Positions 3,689 through 19,162 of a stretch of 64,000 nt of DNA are shown here, piece by piece (within the stretch, counting starts at the first letter, position 1; every line of letters starts with the position of its first letter). Source of the DNA: an uncultured Prevotella sp. (GTDB taxonomy: Bacteria; Bacteroidota; Bacteroidia; Bacteroidales; Bacteroidaceae). The DNA lies in contig CAMCLD010000003.1 of assembly GCA_945875635.1 (NCBI GenBank), forward strand, positions 62,651-126,650, in the 5' to 3' direction. Made by a program: the position numbers and the translations under genes. The notes under the pieces are model-generated. The model did no database searches and was not told the origin of the DNA. It worked only from the letters and a program-made list of their open reading frames with translations.

Positions 3689-3798
3689 ACAATGTTGCCA
3701 ATCCAATGGTAACAGAATAAAATGGATATACGACCATATTAATTAATTCAATGGGATAATGGAGAACGTGCCAAGCCCATGACATAAAACGAAATTAA

Positions 3799-5190
3799 AT
3801 GGAAACATCAAAGCAAAAGACTCTCAAAGGGAGTTTCTCCCTCTGTGGCAAAGGACTTCATACAGGCTTAAGTCTTACTGTAACATTCAATCCTGCAGCA
3901 GAGAACACGGGATATAAAATTCAAAGAATTGATTTGGAAGGAGAACCTATTATCGATGCTGTTGCGGAAAAAGTGATAGACACTCAACGGGGAACCGTAC
4001 TCGCAAGCGGAGATATAAGGATATCTACCGTAGAACATGGTCTCGCAGCTCTATTTGCCATGGGAATTGACAATTGTCTTATACAGGTTAATGGTCCGGA
4101 ATTTCCTATCCTTGATGGTTCCGCTGCCATGTATGTGGATAAAATCAACAATGTTGGCATTGTAGAACAGAACGCTCCTAAAGATTACTATATCATCAGA
4201 AAGAAAATAGAAGTCAAGGACGAACAGACAGGTTCATGTATCACGATATTGCCTGATAGCCAGTTCAGTATTACGGCAATGTGCTCTTTTGAGTCAAAGT
4301 TTATAAACAGTCAGTTTGCCACTCTTGATGACATGTCACATTTCCCACAAGAAATCGCACCTGCGAGAACTTTTGTTTTTGTAAGGGATATAGAACCTCT
4401 GCTCCAGGCAAACCTTATCAAGGGAGGAGACCTTGACAACGCCATTGTAATATATGAACGCCAGACGACACAGGACCGTCTTGACAAATTGGCAGACATG
4501 TTGCATGTGCCACACATGAACGCAAACGACTTGGGATATATCCAACACAAGCCTTTGGTATGGGACAACGAATGCACACGACATAAACTCCTTGACATTA
4601 TCGGTGACATGGCGCTTATAGGCAAACCTATAAAAGGGCGAATAGTAGCTACAAGACCTGGTCATACCATAAACAACAAGTTTGCAAGGTTGATGAGAAA
4701 GGAAATTCGCAAACACGAGATACAAGCTCCCATCTATGACCCTAATGAAGAGCCTATAATGGATAACAACAGAATAAGAGAATTGCTTCCACATCGTTAT
4801 CCTATGCAACTTGTTGACAAAATTACAGCTATTGGACCTACAAGCATAGTGGGTATTAAAAATGTTACAGCCAACGAGCCATTCTTTCAAGGACATTTCC
4901 CACAGGAACCAGTAATGCCTGGAGTACTTCAGGTTGAGGCGATGGCACAATGTGGTGGACTTCTTGTCCTCAATCAGGTTGAAGAACCGGAAAAATGGTC
5001 AACATATTTCCTGAATATAGACAATGTAAAATTCCGTCAGAAAGTAGTACCAGGAGACACTTTGCTTTTCAAAGTTGAACTGCTCCATCCCGTGCGTCAT
5101 GGAATCAGTTCCATGAAGGGTTACATGTTCGTTGGAGACAGAGTCGTATCAGAGGCTACATTCACAGCCCAGATTGTGAAAAACAAGTAA
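3799..5190 (+). CDS. lpxC: Bifunctional LpxC deacetylase / FabZ dehydratase
   Basis: N-terminal GKGLHTG, STVEH and RHKLLD (LpxC); C-terminal LPHRYP, FFQGHFP and MPGVLQVEAMAQ (FabZ). Confidence 0.95.
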   Translation: METSKQKTLKGSFSLCGKGLHTGLSLTVTFNPAAENTGYKIQRIDLEGEPIIDAVAEKVIDTQRGTVLASGDIRISTVEHGLAALFAMGIDNCLIQVNGPEFPILDGSAAMYVDKINNVGIVEQNAPKDYYIIRKKIEVKDEQTGSCITILPDSQFSITAMCSFESKFINSQFATLDDMSHFPQEIAPARTFVFVRDIEPLLQANLIKGGDLDNAIVIYERQTTQDRLDKLADMLHVPHMNANDLGYIQHKPLVWDNECTRHKLLDIIGDMALIGKPIKGRIVATRPGHTINNKFARLMRKEIRKHEIQAPIYDPNEEPIMDNNRIRELLPHRYPMQLVDKITAIGPTSIVGIKNVTANEPFFQGHFPQEPVMPGVLQVEAMAQCGGLLVLNQVEEPEKWSTYFLNIDNVKFRQKVVPGDTLLFKVELLHPVRHGISSMKGYMFVGDRVVSEATFTAQIVKNK

Positions 5191-5204
5191 TAATCATATA
5201 TATT

Positions 5205-5975
5205 ATGAATCAGATTAGTCCTTTAGCTTATATTAATCCAGAAGCGAAACTTGGAGACAACAATGTGATTGGACCATTTTGCTTCATTGACAAGGATACT
5301 GTAATAGGTGACAACAATATCCTTCAGAATAGTGTTACTATCAACAGCGGAGCCCGCATTGGCAACAACAATGAGTTTTTCCCAGGTGCAAGCATTTCAA
5401 CAAAGCCACAGGACCTTAAATACAAAGGAGAACTTACGACTTGCCAGATTGGAGACAACAATTCCATCCGTGAGAACGTGACCATTTCAAAAGGCACTGC
5501 TTCCAAGGGCACAACCATTGTTGGAAGTAACAATCTGCTGATGGAAAACATGCATATTGCGCATGACTGTGTTATTGGAAGTTCATGCATTATTGGAAAT
5601 TCCACAAAATTCGGAGGCGAAGTGATCGTTGATGATTTTGCCATTATTAGTGCTACTGTATTATGCCATCAGTTCTGTCACATAGGCGGATACGTTATGA
5701 TTCAGGGCGGATGCCGATTCAGTCAGGACATTCCTCCTTATGTCATTGTAGGAAAAGAGCCTTCACATTATTGCGGCATAAACTTAGTTGGTTTAAGACG
5801 TAGAGGGTATAGCAAGGAAACAATAGACAATATCCACAATGCATATCGCCTTCTTTATTCTAAAGGACTCATGAAAGAAGGTATTGATGAGATACGTAAG
5901 AATCTGCCACAATGCAAAGAGATTGATTATATCATTGATTTCGTTGAGAATTCCCAACGTGGCATCATACGATAA
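5205..5975 (+). CDS. lpxA: UDP-N-acetylglucosamine acyltransferase
   Basis: Hexapeptide repeats, PQDLKYKGE, HIAHDC, HQFC, GINLVGLRRRG. Confidence 0.95.
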   Translation: MNQISPLAYINPEAKLGDNNVIGPFCFIDKDTVIGDNNILQNSVTINSGARIGNNNEFFPGASISTKPQDLKYKGELTTCQIGDNNSIRENVTISKGTASKGTTIVGSNNLLMENMHIAHDCVIGSSCIIGNSTKFGGEVIVDDFAIISATVLCHQFCHIGGYVMIQGGCRFSQDIPPYVIVGKEPSHYCGINLVGLRRRGYSKETIDNIHNAYRLLYSKGLMKEGIDEIRKNLPQCKEIDYIIDFVENSQRGIIR

Positions 5976-14108: not shown

Positions 14109-15122
14109 TTACTCCCTCATACCTTTTATCGTGATATAGATAATTACCGGAGCTCCGATTAATGGTGTAACAGAATTAAGGGGTAGCATTCCACCTGCCA
14201 CGGGGACAGAGCATATCACATTGCACACCAAAGCAATGACGGCACCAAAAAGGATTGTGAACGGAAGAAGCACACGATGGTTGTCTGTCTTTATAAAAAG
14301 ACGTGAGATATGTGGTACAGCCAGTCCAATGAATGAGACAGGACCACAGAAGGCAGTTACTACAGATGTCAACACTCCGGTTATCACCAATATGGAATTA
14401 CGTAATCGTTTCGTATTGAATCCAAGATTCTCTGCATAATATTCTCCCAGGAGAAGCGCATTGAGCGGTTTCACCATGAAGACAGAAGCTGTAAGTCCTA
14501 ATGATACGAGTATAACAAATAAAGGCATACGTTGCATTGACACGCCAATGAAGCTTCCCATGCCCCAAACAATATACGACTTGACACCTTCAGCCACTGC
14601 AAAGGAACTGGTAATTGTCGTTACAGCCGAGGTGAGATAACCTATCATCATTCCAGCTATTAGCAATGTTACATTGCCCCTAAGGAAATTAGAGAGCATG
14701 AATATTATTATAGTAACACACATGGCTCCCATGAAAGAAGCCATCAAGACAGCAATAAATCCTCCAAGTGACATGCTTCCAATAGACACACTGCCTCCCA
14801 TAACGAGCATTACTATGGCAACACCCATGCCCGCACCTCCATTAATGCCGAAAACAGAGGGACCTGCAAGAGGATTACGGAAAGCTGTCTGCAACAGCAA
14901 TCCACTTGATGACAATGCCGCTCCTGCAAACATGGCTGTCAATGCCTGTGGAAGCCTGACAGAAGTTACTATATAATGCCATACTGGATTGGTATCGGAG
15001 GTTCCTGACAATATTCCCAATACATCTGAAATGGGAATACGGACAGCCCCAAGCATCAAGCTGACAGCAAACAGTACTAAAAGCAATAAAGTCAATATCA
15101 AGAACTTAAAACTATTCATCAT
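14109..15122 (-). CDS. FecCD/BtuC-family ABC permease (iron-chelate or cobalamin)
   Basis: RLPQALTA, FRNPLAGPSVFGINGGA, LLLGEYYAENLG, GPVSFIGLAVPH. Confidence 0.92.
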   Translation of the reverse strand: MMNSFKFLILTLLLLVLFAVSLMLGAVRIPISDVLGILSGTSDTNPVWHYIVTSVRLPQALTAMFAGAALSSSGLLLQTAFRNPLAGPSVFGINGGAGMGVAIVMLVMGGSVSIGSMSLGGFIAVLMASFMGAMCVTIIIFMLSNFLRGNVTLLIAGMMIGYLTSAVTTITSSFAVAEGVKSYIVWGMGSFIGVSMQRMPLFVILVSLGLTASVFMVKPLNALLLGEYYAENLGFNTKRLRNSILVITGVLTSVVTAFCGPVSFIGLAVPHISRLFIKTDNHRVLLPFTILFGAVIALVCNVICSVPVAGGMLPLNSVTPLIGAPVIIYITIKGMRE

Positions 15123-15157
15123 GTTTCATCTTTAACAAAGACGTTGCAACCAGAATG

Positions 15158-16270
15158 TCACTTCGTCACTTTCCTATAATAGATTGTCTTGCCATTTCCA
15201 AGCTCTGGATGGACAATCGCCACAAGGTCGCGAAGAAGCAAATCTGGTCTGAAAGATATATCGTCAAAATACGGCACAGACAATGTATTGACAGTCCATA
15301 TGTTTCTTTCACGCCATGCTCTCATCATCCTGTATGCATCGTTCTCATTACCAATACTTTCATAAGAGATGTCATCATCCATAACATTGAACAACCACAC
15401 ATCAGACTCGCCAGCTTTGTCCAAGACTTCCTCAACTGACTTAGGAAGACTACCTCCATGAGTATCTGATGAGAACGGATAAGAACCTCCTGCATCTATT
15501 ATGGCATGTGCCATACTGCTATTTCCACCTGGCACATACCAAGTACCACCCATCACACGCTCTGTTATGACAGACGGATGTGATGAGGCAGCCCGAGCCT
15601 GTTCACTCAATCTCTGGTATTCACTTTCTACATTGCTGAACAGAGAGTCTGCCTCACGCTCTTTACCGAAAAGTATTCCATAAAAGCGCATCCATTCCGC
15701 CCGTCCCAATGCCGATGTCTCCATATAATCGGCACATTCTACAATTGGAGCTCCTGCTTCCTCTATTATTCCATAACCTCCACTATTCTCGTATGGTGTA
15801 ACGAAAATGGCATCTGGCGTCAAACTGATTATCTTTTCAACATCTGGTGACAATGACGCCCCACAATCCATTACTTTTAACCTATCGATTCCTGTTTTGA
15901 CAACAGGCGACACGATGTATTCCTTGTCAGCTATACCCGCAATCCTGTTTCCTGCTCCAAGACTGAAGGCAAGAGATACGTGAGGAGACGAGAAAACGAC
16001 GGCTCTGTCAAACGGAATGTATAAAGCCGTACCATCTGGCAAATCAGATGAAATAGCAGAGTCTTTCCTTTCAACAAGGACATAACGGTGCAGGACTTTT
16101 GATGAATCCCACGGGCTGACAAGCGTTGCAACACGGAAATTCCCCACCATATCAATGGATATATTCCTTGCATATTTGAAGCCGTCACCTCTTCCAATAA
16201 CATTATTCTCATTGGCACATGACAGAATAAGGAAGAGAAACAACATAAAAGCACATACTTTCCGAATCAT
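15158..16270 (-). CDS. BtuF/FecB-type substrate-binding lipoprotein
   Basis: Lipobox ILSC; EKIISLTPD; YMETSALGRAEW; PDLLLRDLV. Adjacent to the permease. Confidence 0.88.
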   Translation of the reverse strand: MIRKVCAFMLFLFLILSCANENNVIGRGDGFKYARNISIDMVGNFRVATLVSPWDSSKVLHRYVLVERKDSAISSDLPDGTALYIPFDRAVVFSSPHVSLAFSLGAGNRIAGIADKEYIVSPVVKTGIDRLKVMDCGASLSPDVEKIISLTPDAIFVTPYENSGGYGIIEEAGAPIVECADYMETSALGRAEWMRFYGILFGKEREADSLFSNVESEYQRLSEQARAASSHPSVITERVMGGTWYVPGGNSSMAHAIIDAGGSYPFSSDTHGGSLPKSVEEVLDKAGESDVWLFNVMDDDISYESIGNENDAYRMMRAWRERNIWTVNTLSVPYFDDISFRPDLLLRDLVAIVHPELGNGKTIYYRKVTK

Positions 16271-16460: not shown

Positions 16461-18422
16461 ATGGATACAGAAAAGACAAGTCTCTTAGACAACAGCTACT
16501 CAAAAAAGAAAATGCTTGAGTTAGCTGTGATTTTGTTAGTGACAGCAGTAATATGGTGTCTTCCTCTTGACTCATTCGGAATAGAGGGACTTACAATCAT
16601 CCAACAGCGTGTAATTGCAATTTTTGTATTTGCCACCCTGTCATGGCTTACGGAAGCCATACCATCATGGGCGACATCGCTTGCCATCATCACAATAATG
16701 TGCTTTACGGTGTCAAACAACAGTCTGTCGTGCTTTAAGGAAACTTGTGCAAAACTGCAAGCAAACGACAAGGAACTGCAAGTTACAAAGGACATTAAGT
16801 TCACAAGCGGCATCTACGACTCTGACAAAATAGTGTTCGACAGGAACGAGAAGACTCTAATACTGAACGGCAAGAATATCATCATGAAACTGCCAGAGAT
16901 GAAAAAGGGTGAAACAGTGCTGGTGACATATCTCGCAAAGGAAGGAGAGAAAGGCTATTTGGCTGGCTCAAAGAACACCGTCGTTAAAGGCGGCAAGACA
17001 ACTGACGACAGCAAAACATTAATGGCAAGTGTCACAAAAGACGGCCCTGTTTACTTCACTACAAAAGGAGGAGCACTCCACCTGAAATCAATAGAACTGC
17101 TGGAAAGTAGTGGGAAAGACTCCAAGAGTGACAGGAAATGGGATTTTGAAGACATGAGTGATGATGACCTGCGCTCGCTTGCAGCAGACAACCAGACATG
17201 GATATGCAAAGACAACGCATACAGCAACAAGGACTTGATAGAAGGTGCAGATTTTGGTTCTGAGCTGAGCTCGACTGAAATTATGGCTACTTTCGCCAAT
17301 CCTGTAATCATGCTTTTCCTCGGAGGCTTTATCCTTGCCATTGCTGCAACAAAATCAGGACTTGACGTATTGCTGGCAAGAAGCCTTATAAAACCTTTCG
17401 GAAACAAGAGCGAGAATGTTCTGCTGGGCTTCCTCCTTATTACTGGAGTATTCTCTATGTTTGTATCCAACACCGCCACGGCTGCCATGATGCTTACATT
17501 CCTCACGCCAGTGTTCGCCGCTCTTCCAGCAAGCGGAAAAGGAAGGATTGCACTTACTCTGTGCATTCCTGTGGCAGCAAATATCGGTGGAATAGCAACA
17601 CCTATCGGTACTCCTCCCAATGCCATCGCCGTTCAGGCTCTCAACGACACGCTTCACATGAGCATTGGTTTTGGACAATGGATGATGGTCATGTTCCCAT
17701 TTGTCATCCTGATGCTTTTCATATCATGGTTTATCATCAAGAAACTCTTCCCATTCTCCAAAAAGACCATAGAACTTGACATTACAGGAAATGTACATAA
17801 AGGATGGAGAATGTGGGTCGTTTCCATAACATTCATCGTAACAATACTCATGTGGCTTCTTGACCGTGTCACAGGTGTTGACGCCAACACAGTGGCACTC
17901 ATACCAATGGGAGTATTCGCAATCACTGGTGTCATAACAGCAAAAGACCTTCAGTCTATTGACTGGAGCGTTATCTGGATGGTGGCAGGAGGATTCGCAC
18001 TCGGACTTGGACTTAACTCTTCAGGACTTGCCGCTGCGGCTATTGACTCTATACCATTCGCAAAATGGAGTCCGCTGATGATTTTGATAGCTTCAGGTCT
18101 TATCTGCTATGTTCTTTCAAACTTCATATCAAACACAGCCACAGCCGCACTTCTCGTGCCGATACTTGCAGTCGTATGTACTGGAATGGGAGACTTGCTT
18201 GGCTCTATAGGTGGTACCAGCACTATCATCATTGGTATTGCTTTGTCTGCATCAAGTGCCATGTGCCTTCCTATTTCCACACCTCCCAATGCCATTGCAT
18301 ACTCGACAGGACTTGTAAAACAGAACGACATGCTGAAAATAGGACTTATCATAGGTGTACTCTGCATGGTGATTGGTTATGGAATACTATATCTTGTAGG
18401 CATATCCCACTTGTTCGGATAA
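16461..18422 (+). CDS. DASS/SLC13 anion:sodium symporter with an inserted soluble domain
   Basis: WLTEAIP, MLFLGGF, VSNTATAAM, TPIGTPPNA, ISNTATAALLVP and ISTPPNAIAY motifs. A hydrophilic stretch spans about aa 93-265. Confidence 0.9.
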   Translation: MDTEKTSLLDNSYSKKKMLELAVILLVTAVIWCLPLDSFGIEGLTIIQQRVIAIFVFATLSWLTEAIPSWATSLAIITIMCFTVSNNSLSCFKETCAKLQANDKELQVTKDIKFTSGIYDSDKIVFDRNEKTLILNGKNIIMKLPEMKKGETVLVTYLAKEGEKGYLAGSKNTVVKGGKTTDDSKTLMASVTKDGPVYFTTKGGALHLKSIELLESSGKDSKSDRKWDFEDMSDDDLRSLAADNQTWICKDNAYSNKDLIEGADFGSELSSTEIMATFANPVIMLFLGGFILAIAATKSGLDVLLARSLIKPFGNKSENVLLGFLLITGVFSMFVSNTATAAMMLTFLTPVFAALPASGKGRIALTLCIPVAANIGGIATPIGTPPNAIAVQALNDTLHMSIGFGQWMMVMFPFVILMLFISWFIIKKLFPFSKKTIELDITGNVHKGWRMWVVSITFIVTILMWLLDRVTGVDANTVALIPMGVFAITGVITAKDLQSIDWSVIWMVAGGFALGLGLNSSGLAAAAIDSIPFAKWSPLMILIASGLICYVLSNFISNTATAALLVPILAVVCTGMGDLLGSIGGTSTIIIGIALSASSAMCLPISTPPNAIAYSTGLVKQNDMLKIGLIIGVLCMVIGYGILYLVGISHLFG

Positions 18423-18544: not shown

Positions 18545-19162
18545 TTATAGGTTGAATGCATATTTTACAGTCTCATACACCTCGAGAAACATCATAAGGA
18601 CAGGAATCAAAGGTGCAACACAACGTATGCCCCAGACTATAGCATTGAATATGGAAGTGATATTACCAAAGGTTCCACAAATAACGCCATAGGAAATAGA
18701 ACATACTGCAACCGTTGCCGTGAGTGTTGAAACTATCGATTTTGAGAATGGACCAGGAAAGAGATCTCCATTGACATTGGCAAGAACAGCATGTGGCAAG
18801 CATGTAAGGAGAAACATCATCACCATAACTATAACCATCTCTCCAAAAACTATTCGCAGAGCCAGTTTGTGCTGGAAGAGGAAGGGTTTCCTAACATCAT
18901 CTCTATTCTTCCCAAAAGATAGCAGGCCGCTTTTAACCAATAGACCAAGACCAACAGACAACAATAACAGCCATGCCAGAGGCTCTGAAATAACATTGGA
19001 CACAGAAGTGGCAAACAACCATCTCACTCCATCGCTTCCCATAAGGGAATTGACAGAAAGGTCTGGTCGAAGAGTGCTTATCATCCATGAAAGAATTATG
19101 ACAAACAACTCAAGGCATATTAGCGACACAAACGAATAAGTCAGAATCCTGTTAGTCTTCAT
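18545..19162 (-). CDS. Short AbgT-like membrane protein
   Basis: VNSLMGSDGVRWLF...PLAWLLLLSVGLGLLVKSGL resembles the AbgT N-terminal motif; LFPGPF..SIV; about 5 hydrophobic segments; 205 aa. Confidence 0.6.
   Translation of the reverse strand: MKTNRILTYSFVSLICLELFVIILSWMISTLRPDLSVNSLMGSDGVRWLFATSVSNVISEPLAWLLLLSVGLGLLVKSGLLSFGKNRDDVRKPFLFQHKLALRIVFGEMVIVMVMMFLLTCLPHAVLANVNGDLFPGPFSKSIVSTLTATVAVCSISYGVICGTFGNITSIFNAIVWGIRCVAPLIPVLMMFLEVYETVKYAFNL

Follow-up and report, generated by a model that had tools for sequence, protein, structure and literature searches.

The window, i. e., the 64,000 nucleotides of DNA analysed here (uncultured Prevotella sp., assembly GCA_945875635.1, contig CAMCLD010000003.1, positions 62,651 to 126,650 of the forward strand), carries a gene for a 653-residue membrane transporter of the DASS family in which a long hydrophilic segment separates the third and fourth transmembrane helices (TM; Table 1). 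The frame scored 258.3 bits against the NCBIfam model TIGR00785 ('DASS family sodium-coupled anion symporter', cut-off 198.6) and was also matched by the Pfam families Na_sulph_symp (PF00939, 151 bits) and CitMHS (PF03600). A phmmer search against PDB aligned residues 75-439 of VcINDY (4f35) with amino acids (aa) 274-638 (E 2.4e-38) and, weakly, VcINDY residues 36-63 with aa 52-79, leaving about 195 query residues (aa 79-274) opposite about 12 residues of VcINDY (chain 63-75). Both SNT motifs and both PPN motifs (P385-P-N and P608-P-N) are present, family-invariant and aligned to VcINDY, in keeping with an earlier reading of the same DNA made from its letters alone (the sequence-only reading), which had noted complete DASS motifs in the 653-aa protein. 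The gene is predicted to encode a Na+-coupled symporter of di/tricarboxylates that is of the VcINDY type and belongs to the DASS family (SLC13, TC 2.A.47). Three helices were counted before the insert and the remainder aligns to VcINDY, while the side of the membrane on which the loop lies was taken from the literature (PMC7553777). The same genome holds no insert-less orthologue, its sole other DASS protein being a distant paralogue.

Table 1. Features of the transporter gene and of its neighbour pair (positions are those of the window).
Feature	Position	Strand	Basis
DASS (VcINDY-type) symporter gene with insert, 653 aa	16461..18422	+	Open reading frame (ORF); TIGR00785, PF00939, PF03600 and VcINDY matches
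Three N-terminal scaffold helices (aa 15-32, 47-65, 70-90), taken as TM1-TM3, ahead of the insert	16503..16730	+	AlphaFold2 (AF2) model (low confidence), hydrophobic windows, weak VcINDY alignment
Inserted domain, aa ~96-261, missing from 75 orthologues	16746..17243	+	Orthologue alignment; insert-only model with predicted local distance difference test (pLDDT) 85.9 and predicted TM-score (pTM) 0.84
Segment A, aa 97-214, corresponding to canonical module 41-159 (L.ANG.EL ... KGG..L.SI.L)	16749..17102	+	Profile A5, 72.9 bits
Linker ESSGKDSKSD, aa 215-224, from canonical C-terminus to canonical N-terminus	17103..17132	+	Lies between two A5 matches; pLDDT ~70
Segment B, aa 225-259, corresponding to canonical module 1-37 (W227-D-F, helix DLRSLAAD, W247, Y-N)	17133..17237	+	Profile A5, 25.0 bits
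Host loop remnant GADFGSEL, leading into TM4a (IMATFANP...)	17244..17267	+	Aligns with G[AE]xFGELL of insert-less orthologues
SNT motif 1, S336-N337-T338, HPin tip	17466..17474	+	Family-invariant; aligned to VcINDY SNT
SNT motif 2, S557-N558-T559, HPout tip	18129..18137	+	Family-invariant; aligned to VcINDY
Peripla_BP_2 (15158-16270) and FecCD permease (14109-15122)	14109..16270	-	Pfam; divergent from the DASS gene

Alignment with the 75 insert-less orthologues placed the borders of the inserted domain within a few codons of the interval 16737-17255 given by the sequence-only reading and defined its junctions as FK-G[EG] / ~165 aa / G[AE]xFGxxL-S-x-[DE]IMATFANP. The TM3-TM4 loop comprises about 12 residues in VcINDY and about 10 in the insert-less orthologues and is thus short in VcINDY-type transporters, as had been stated. 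The domain is hydrophilic (mean Kyte-Doolittle value -0.65) and predicted to be all-beta with one helix, much as aa ~93-265 had been described at first sight; it matched no family in scans against Pfam and NCBIfam. Base composition and GC are uniform across it, and the reading frame is open throughout.

A word-based search limited to aa 80-280 retrieved DASS proteins of 649-654 aa with the same insert (69-98 % identity overall, 43-96 % within the insert). A locus scan with one genome per prokaryote species gave 80 loci, five of which (L007-L011) carry the insert; the carriers are the uncultured rumen and gut Prevotella UMGS937, RGIG10298, RUG212, and hRUG878 as well as the cultured Prevotella lacticifex JCM 34664. 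The proteins of the other 75 loci, from the genera Prevotella, Hoylesella, Alloprevotella, Capnocytophaga, and Tannerella, measure 452-491 aa (mostly 483-491) and are 68-81 % identical, except for one Vibrio sequence (L086) at 48 %. The insert is therefore not general among DASS proteins of Bacteroidetes, which the sequence-only reading had named as an outcome that would refute its proposal, but is confined to a small clade of rumen and gut Prevotella. The 90 %-identity cluster of a near-identical relative (P0003) has 72 members, one of which (653 aa) was seen on 261 contigs, and the fusion is therefore no assembly artefact. The broader suspicion of a chimeric contig or a frame error is further refuted by the insert's occurrence at the same site in five independent genomes, including that of a cultured strain, and runs counter to the uninterrupted frame and even GC, which leaves this explanation practically no probability.

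Relatives of the inserted domain are found outside transporters. A six-frame search of the genomes of 40 relatives with the insert as query yielded matches to long open frames in four further members of the genus, as well as one more in the window's own genome (the pectate lyase described below). A profile built from eight DASS inserts (A2) and searched against 1.84 billion representative proteins gave 178 matches at E ≤ 1e-3 (clusters at 50 % identity), of which five were DASS proteins or fragments and the others non-transporter proteins. About two thirds of the latter start with a signal-peptide-like hydrophobic stretch, and several hold tandem copies of the module. A Pfam census of 81 module-bearing proteins found Pectate_lyase_4 in 14, CBM77 in eight, CHB_HEX_C_1 in six, and Mfa_like_1 in four, along with single cases of other pectin-type beta-helix domains; the majority had no Pfam domain at all and no recognised catalytic domain. 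The canonical relatives, and these only, are appended to carbohydrate-active enzymes, with PL1 pectate lyase as the commonest Pfam partner. On the strength of the profile matches, the insert and an accessory module found on secreted proteins of Prevotella and Bacteroidales are homologous, which is the resemblance that the sequence-only reading had suggested. An unstudied module family of secreted Bacteroidales proteins is thereby defined, with 178 clusters at 50 % identity and many pectate lyases among its members.

A six-frame scan of the window's own genome with profile hidden Markov models found just two copies of the module, namely the transporter insert and a copy in a 933-aa pectate lyase (G000 C8:41599-44400) that consists of a signal peptide, the module (27-187), Pectate_lyase_4 (473-637), and CBM77 (819-926); in the latter protein, a Gly/Ser-rich linker lies between PL1 and CBM77. 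With regard to export, Por_Secre_tail was found in one of 81 secreted relatives (Pfam), and of ten relatives compared with the NCBIfam sorting-domain models none gave a match; therefore, type IX secretion (T9SS) is not claimed for them. A C-terminal tail resembling '...G.Y..NGKK...K' is present in 42 of 147 secreted relatives. The module's visual similarity to the CBM77 of the own-genome pectate lyase had raised the suspicion that it is itself CBM77 (PF18283), a candidate that was rejected upon an hhalign probability of 1.5 % against the CBM77 alignment and no Pfam match; the same identification was rejected for the solved protein 8wc1, to which we return below.

The order of the two halves of the insert differs from that of its secreted relatives. 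In 94 of 148 non-DASS matches, the region corresponding to A2 positions ~130-172 (WDF...D..L.AD..W...Y.N) lies directly upstream of that corresponding to ~5-128, with a median gap of 6 residues, whereas the order of the insert occurs in none of the 148 save for 19 proteins in which a single A2 match (from ~7 to beyond 155) spans the junction of two tandem modules. A second profile (A5), made solely from 26 canonical modules and comprising 161 positions, matched the native inserts in two swapped pieces, that is, positions 41-159 on insert residues 3-120 (72-94 bits) and positions 1-38 on residues ~126-167 (21-27 bits). Once the C-terminal piece of each insert had been moved to its front in silico, A5 gave one end-to-end match (1-159 of 161) with 108-132 bits in eight out of eight cases, and the re-permuted inserts showed 31-40 % identity to canonical modules across about 160 residues in BLASTP. 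All 159 profile positions and the signature residues are common to the insert and to the secreted module, e. g., that of the own-genome PL1-CBM77 lyase. By these alignments the insert is one complete module, circularly permuted, with its breakpoint between canonical residues 38 and 41. The reversed segment order had been noticed by the sequence-only reading and is borne out by both the swapped A5 matches and the canonical order in the 94 relatives.

The new ends of the insert are expected to lie side by side because they are contiguous residues in the canonical module, and adjacent ends fit the requirement of insertion into a loop. The canonical termini are joined by a linker whose length varies from 10 to 16 residues among insert homologues. 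The permuted order is exactly what would arise if the junction of two tandem modules had been captured in frame, and an origin at such a junction is plausible since arrays with junctions in the order of the insert exist (the 19 proteins above). This capture had been put forward by the sequence-only reading, and the matching arrays make it a plausible origin.

The insert is confidently predicted to adopt a beta-sandwich fold of about 160 residues. The AF2 model of the insert alone, the input alignment of which included tandem-junction segments, shows about 13 strands and one helix at the high confidence listed in Table 1, with the linker as its least confident part. A disordered insert, considered by the sequence-only reading as an outcome that would speak against its proposal, is not what this model describes (pLDDT 85.9).

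As to its location on the transporter, the scaffold of DASS proteins is formed by TM1-4 and TM7-9, and the transport domain by TM5, 6, 10, 11, and two hairpins (Sauer et al. 2020, PMC7553777). LaINDY, the DASS exchanger of Lactobacillus acidophilus, displays a small TM3-TM4 extrusion that is periplasmic and located on the scaffold near the dimer interface (PMC7553777). Because of this topology and the LaINDY precedent, the insert would be periplasmic and sit on the static scaffold near the two-fold axis, a placement that agrees with its relatives being exported proteins. Such a position also invites the idea of a structural or regulatory cap, in which both subunits' modules would come together above the interface of the scaffolds and either stabilise the dimer or, upon a periplasmic signal, gate access to the outward-facing sites. 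A periplasmic insertion site near the dimer interface would suit this role, as would the clade-specific E268 that adjoins the insert; the canonical module, however, is not known to dimerise, and the membrane part is so poorly modelled that no assembly model could be drawn upon, and we regard a cap as improbable.

Sequence evolution indicates that the domain is maintained. In pairs with unsaturated dS, the ratio of nonsynonymous to synonymous substitution rates (dN/dS) ranges from 0.17 to 0.35 within the insert, as against 0.04-0.12 in the core; the usable ratios are few as dS is saturated in most pairs, and pN (the proportion of nonsynonymous differences) is far below pS (that of synonymous ones) in every pair. 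The insert is under purifying selection. With respect to composition, seven of eight inserts are Lys-rich with an isoelectric point (pI) of 8-9, that of the window's own insert being 5.4, as compared to a median pI of 4.9 for the canonical secreted modules. The transporter copy hence differs from the secreted module in being permuted, embedded in a membrane protein, and Lys-rich.

The four substrate and Na+ motif regions are identical in insert-bearing and insert-less Prevotella/Hoylesella orthologues, and outside the insert only two positions are clade-specific, namely E268 and H399. Because of the identical motifs, a switch to uronates or oligogalacturonides as substrate is unlikely. This bears directly on the capture-and-import design suggested by the sequence-only reading, here taken to mean that pectin fragments or uronates are bound by the module in the periplasm and passed on to the DASS core, which imports them for the uxaA/kdgK/eda pathway. 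Such capture and import would be in line with the presence of the module's relatives on pectate lyases and with substrates that would be carboxylates, and the window does contain eda, kdgK, a gene for a LacI-type regulator, and uxaA. These genes, however, lie 5-10 kb downstream, beyond a convergent two-component system, and do not neighbour the DASS gene in other insert-bearing loci (L087-L089), so that the linkage proposed at first is not supported. The conserved neighbour is instead an ABC system of the FecCD type: the Peripla_BP_2/FecCD pair is the only conserved neighbour of the DASS gene and is common to insert-bearing and insert-less orthologues. Together with SNT and PPN motifs and flanks that are the same as in insert-less Prevotella/Hoylesella orthologues, this makes uronate capture and import highly improbable. 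Synteny was also considered as a possible connection with genes for pectin or uronate use, an idea that was rejected, the uronate genes not being conserved neighbours.

The best explanation, to which we assign a probability of roughly 0.75, is that of a VcINDY-type DASS symporter with a complete, permuted, lyase-associated module in a periplasmic loop of its scaffold. The TM3-TM4 loop has acquired one module of about 160 residues that otherwise follows a signal peptide or occurs in tandem arrays of secreted proteins, and the carboxylate moved by the transporter would still be that of the insert-less orthologues. Carried on an immobile part of the protein, the module may then offer a surface in the periplasm to which a glycan, an anionic ligand, or a partner protein binds or docks. 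Taken by itself, such a binding or docking role with an unchanged transported substrate is the favoured function, albeit a tentative one. A more specific version, in which the module is a periplasmic receptor on the immobile scaffold that feeds, gates, or localises dicarboxylate uptake, seems unlikely; its ligand could be a partner protein or an anionic oligosaccharide, be it derived from pectin or of another kind, and it would amount to a tethered-receptor design obtained via natural permutation.

Several results weigh against this explanation. A Foldseek search of the insert model against PDB gave no match at E ≤ 1e-3 (best E ≥ 0.04), permutation being a handicap for sequential aligners; the best-ranked matches were beta-sandwiches of CBM15 (1gny), CBM6 (2v4v/1w9s), CBM35 (2w46), and GH146 with TM-scores of at most 0.44, the three CBM families being all-beta sandwiches of similar size. 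Among solved structures, the one sequence relative is 8wc1_A (178 aa, named 'Pectate lyase family 9'), which A5 matched at a marginal E of 5e-4; the match to 8x8h_A ('Pectate disaccharide-lyase') was weaker still. A link to the 'CALG' domain of Caldicellulosiruptor is conceivable. Neither Pfam nor NCBIfam holds a family for the module itself, which has no public name on record, and no ligand, partner, or glycan binding of it was found in the literature. The structure predictions proposed by the sequence-only reading were helpful in part: while the insert folds confidently, the membrane part of the full-length AF2 model stayed below pLDDT 50 (the alignment being shallow and its sequences too similar). 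The periplasmic topology is inferred. Finally, all insert-bearing sequences group together in the membrane-core tree with a support of only 0.65, and the insert-less L020 (uncultured Prevotella sp. SRP225648_co1_919, gene 3765-5210, 483 aa, loop FKGDG-YGTIL) is nested within the insert clade beside the L009/L010/L011 subgroup with a support of 0.999. L020 shares the clade-specific H399 and seems to have lost the domain precisely and at a later stage, which makes one gain followed by one loss the simplest reading of the history of the insert. As L020 nests in the clade without it, the insert would be losable and dispensable to the transporter.

This loss leads to the main rival, in which the domain is a tolerated passenger that came to lie in a permissive loop of the static scaffold, contributes no function, and persists only because it has to remain folded if membrane insertion is not to suffer. 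In addition to L020, the core with its mere two clade-specific substitutions, the tolerance of LaINDY for an extrusion in the same loop, and an insert that evolves 2-4 times faster than the core would all be expected of a passenger. It accounts less well, however, for an insert that is kept across lineages with saturated synonymous sites and with pN far below pS, or for the conservation of its signature residues (W227-D-F, W247, TK.., LNG, KKG, DG.V, KGG). Furthermore, the shift to Lys-rich composition (pI 8-9 in seven of eight inserts versus a median of 4.9) suggests adaptation to the new setting. We therefore hold a passenger to be rather unlikely, if less so than a cap or a receptor, and prefer the permuted module in a scaffold loop of a working symporter.

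This preferred arrangement may be compared with known systems. VcINDY and bacterial DASS proteins (4f35, 5ul7) share the homology from TM4 to TM11 as well as the SNT and PPN motifs and, by inference, the same elevator architecture of scaffold and transport domain; VcINDY and the 75 orthologues, however, have a TM3-TM4 loop of 10-12 residues in place of a folded domain of about 165 residues. The insertion site is the same in LaINDY (PMC7553777), the extrusion of which is a short sequence insertion, whereas the insert is a domain in its own right, related to parts of other proteins. The notion that an elevator-type carboxylate transporter works together with a binding unit in the periplasm is shared with the TRAP system SiaQM-SiaP, the membrane domain of which has been compared with VcINDY (PMC9971032), and with ABC importers carrying a fused substrate-binding domain. 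There, however, the binding unit is a substrate-binding protein (SBP) of the Venus-flytrap type with a demonstrated role, whereas here it is a beta-sandwich within a loop and its role is putative only.

DASS/SLC13 proteins are a structural model of elevator transport and include human drug targets. In literature searches of partial scope, we found no report of a folded extra-membrane domain in a DASS scaffold loop, the short LaINDY extrusion being the only precedent found at the TM3-TM4 site. The transporter would accordingly offer a natural example of domain insertion solved by permutation, for which canonical, tandem, and permuted forms as well as one apparent loss can be compared. A rigid domain of 18 kDa on a static scaffold could conceivably also act as a natural fiducial for electron cryo-microscopy of a small transporter. 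Ligand binding by the domain, if it occurs, would reveal a route by which a secondary transporter can gain a receptor in cis; if the receptor reading is true, the protein would be analogous in function to SBP-dependent TRAP systems, built from a lyase-type beta-sandwich.

Some further observations concern the neighbourhood and the wider distribution of these sequences. No ATPase ORF adjoining the Peripla_BP_2/FecCD pair was seen in the 150-aa ORF list; the divergent arrangement is conserved in many Prevotella, whether or not they carry the insert, and a paper on an iron stimulon contained nothing relevant to the FecCD neighbour. Fur-family genes are located near the L087 locus and a ferritin gene near the L089 locus, a hint that the orthogroup may have a function related to metals. 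Downstream of the transporter gene, a 205-aa ORF (18545-19162, minus strand) is matched by no more than the central part of the profile for AbgT transporters (positions 253-345 of 502) and overlaps the start of a response-regulator gene (DUF5932), which lies upstream of a gene for a histidine kinase of 1190 aa (DUF5112/DUF5113).

Among the insert-less orthologues, those of Capnocytophaga (Flavobacteriales; L026, L033-L035, L037, L040, and L060) share 77-78 % of their residues with the Prevotella protein and fall within the radiation of Prevotella and Hoylesella, beside P. phocaeensis; others stem from Tannerella (L066 and L071). The branching suggests that the transporter was laterally transferred among oral Bacteroidota. 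Contigs labelled as Oscillospiraceae and Paratractidigestivibacter (L017 and L056) carry Prevotella-type DASS genes with 74-79 % identity and are probably mis-binned in metagenome-assembled genomes. With respect to the module, one A2 match (P0157, 479 aa) consists of six tandem repeats of 66 residues, each matching profile positions 4-55 only (the L.ANG.EL...F part), so that a fragment of the module has here been multiplied into a repeat array. A long open frame (L002, 2466-3368, minus strand) that adjoins the G021 pectate lyase is made up of a degenerate repeat of about 30 residues, GTPNRTGIFPLLECRSRS, and is probably no gene but the reflection of repeated DNA between genes.

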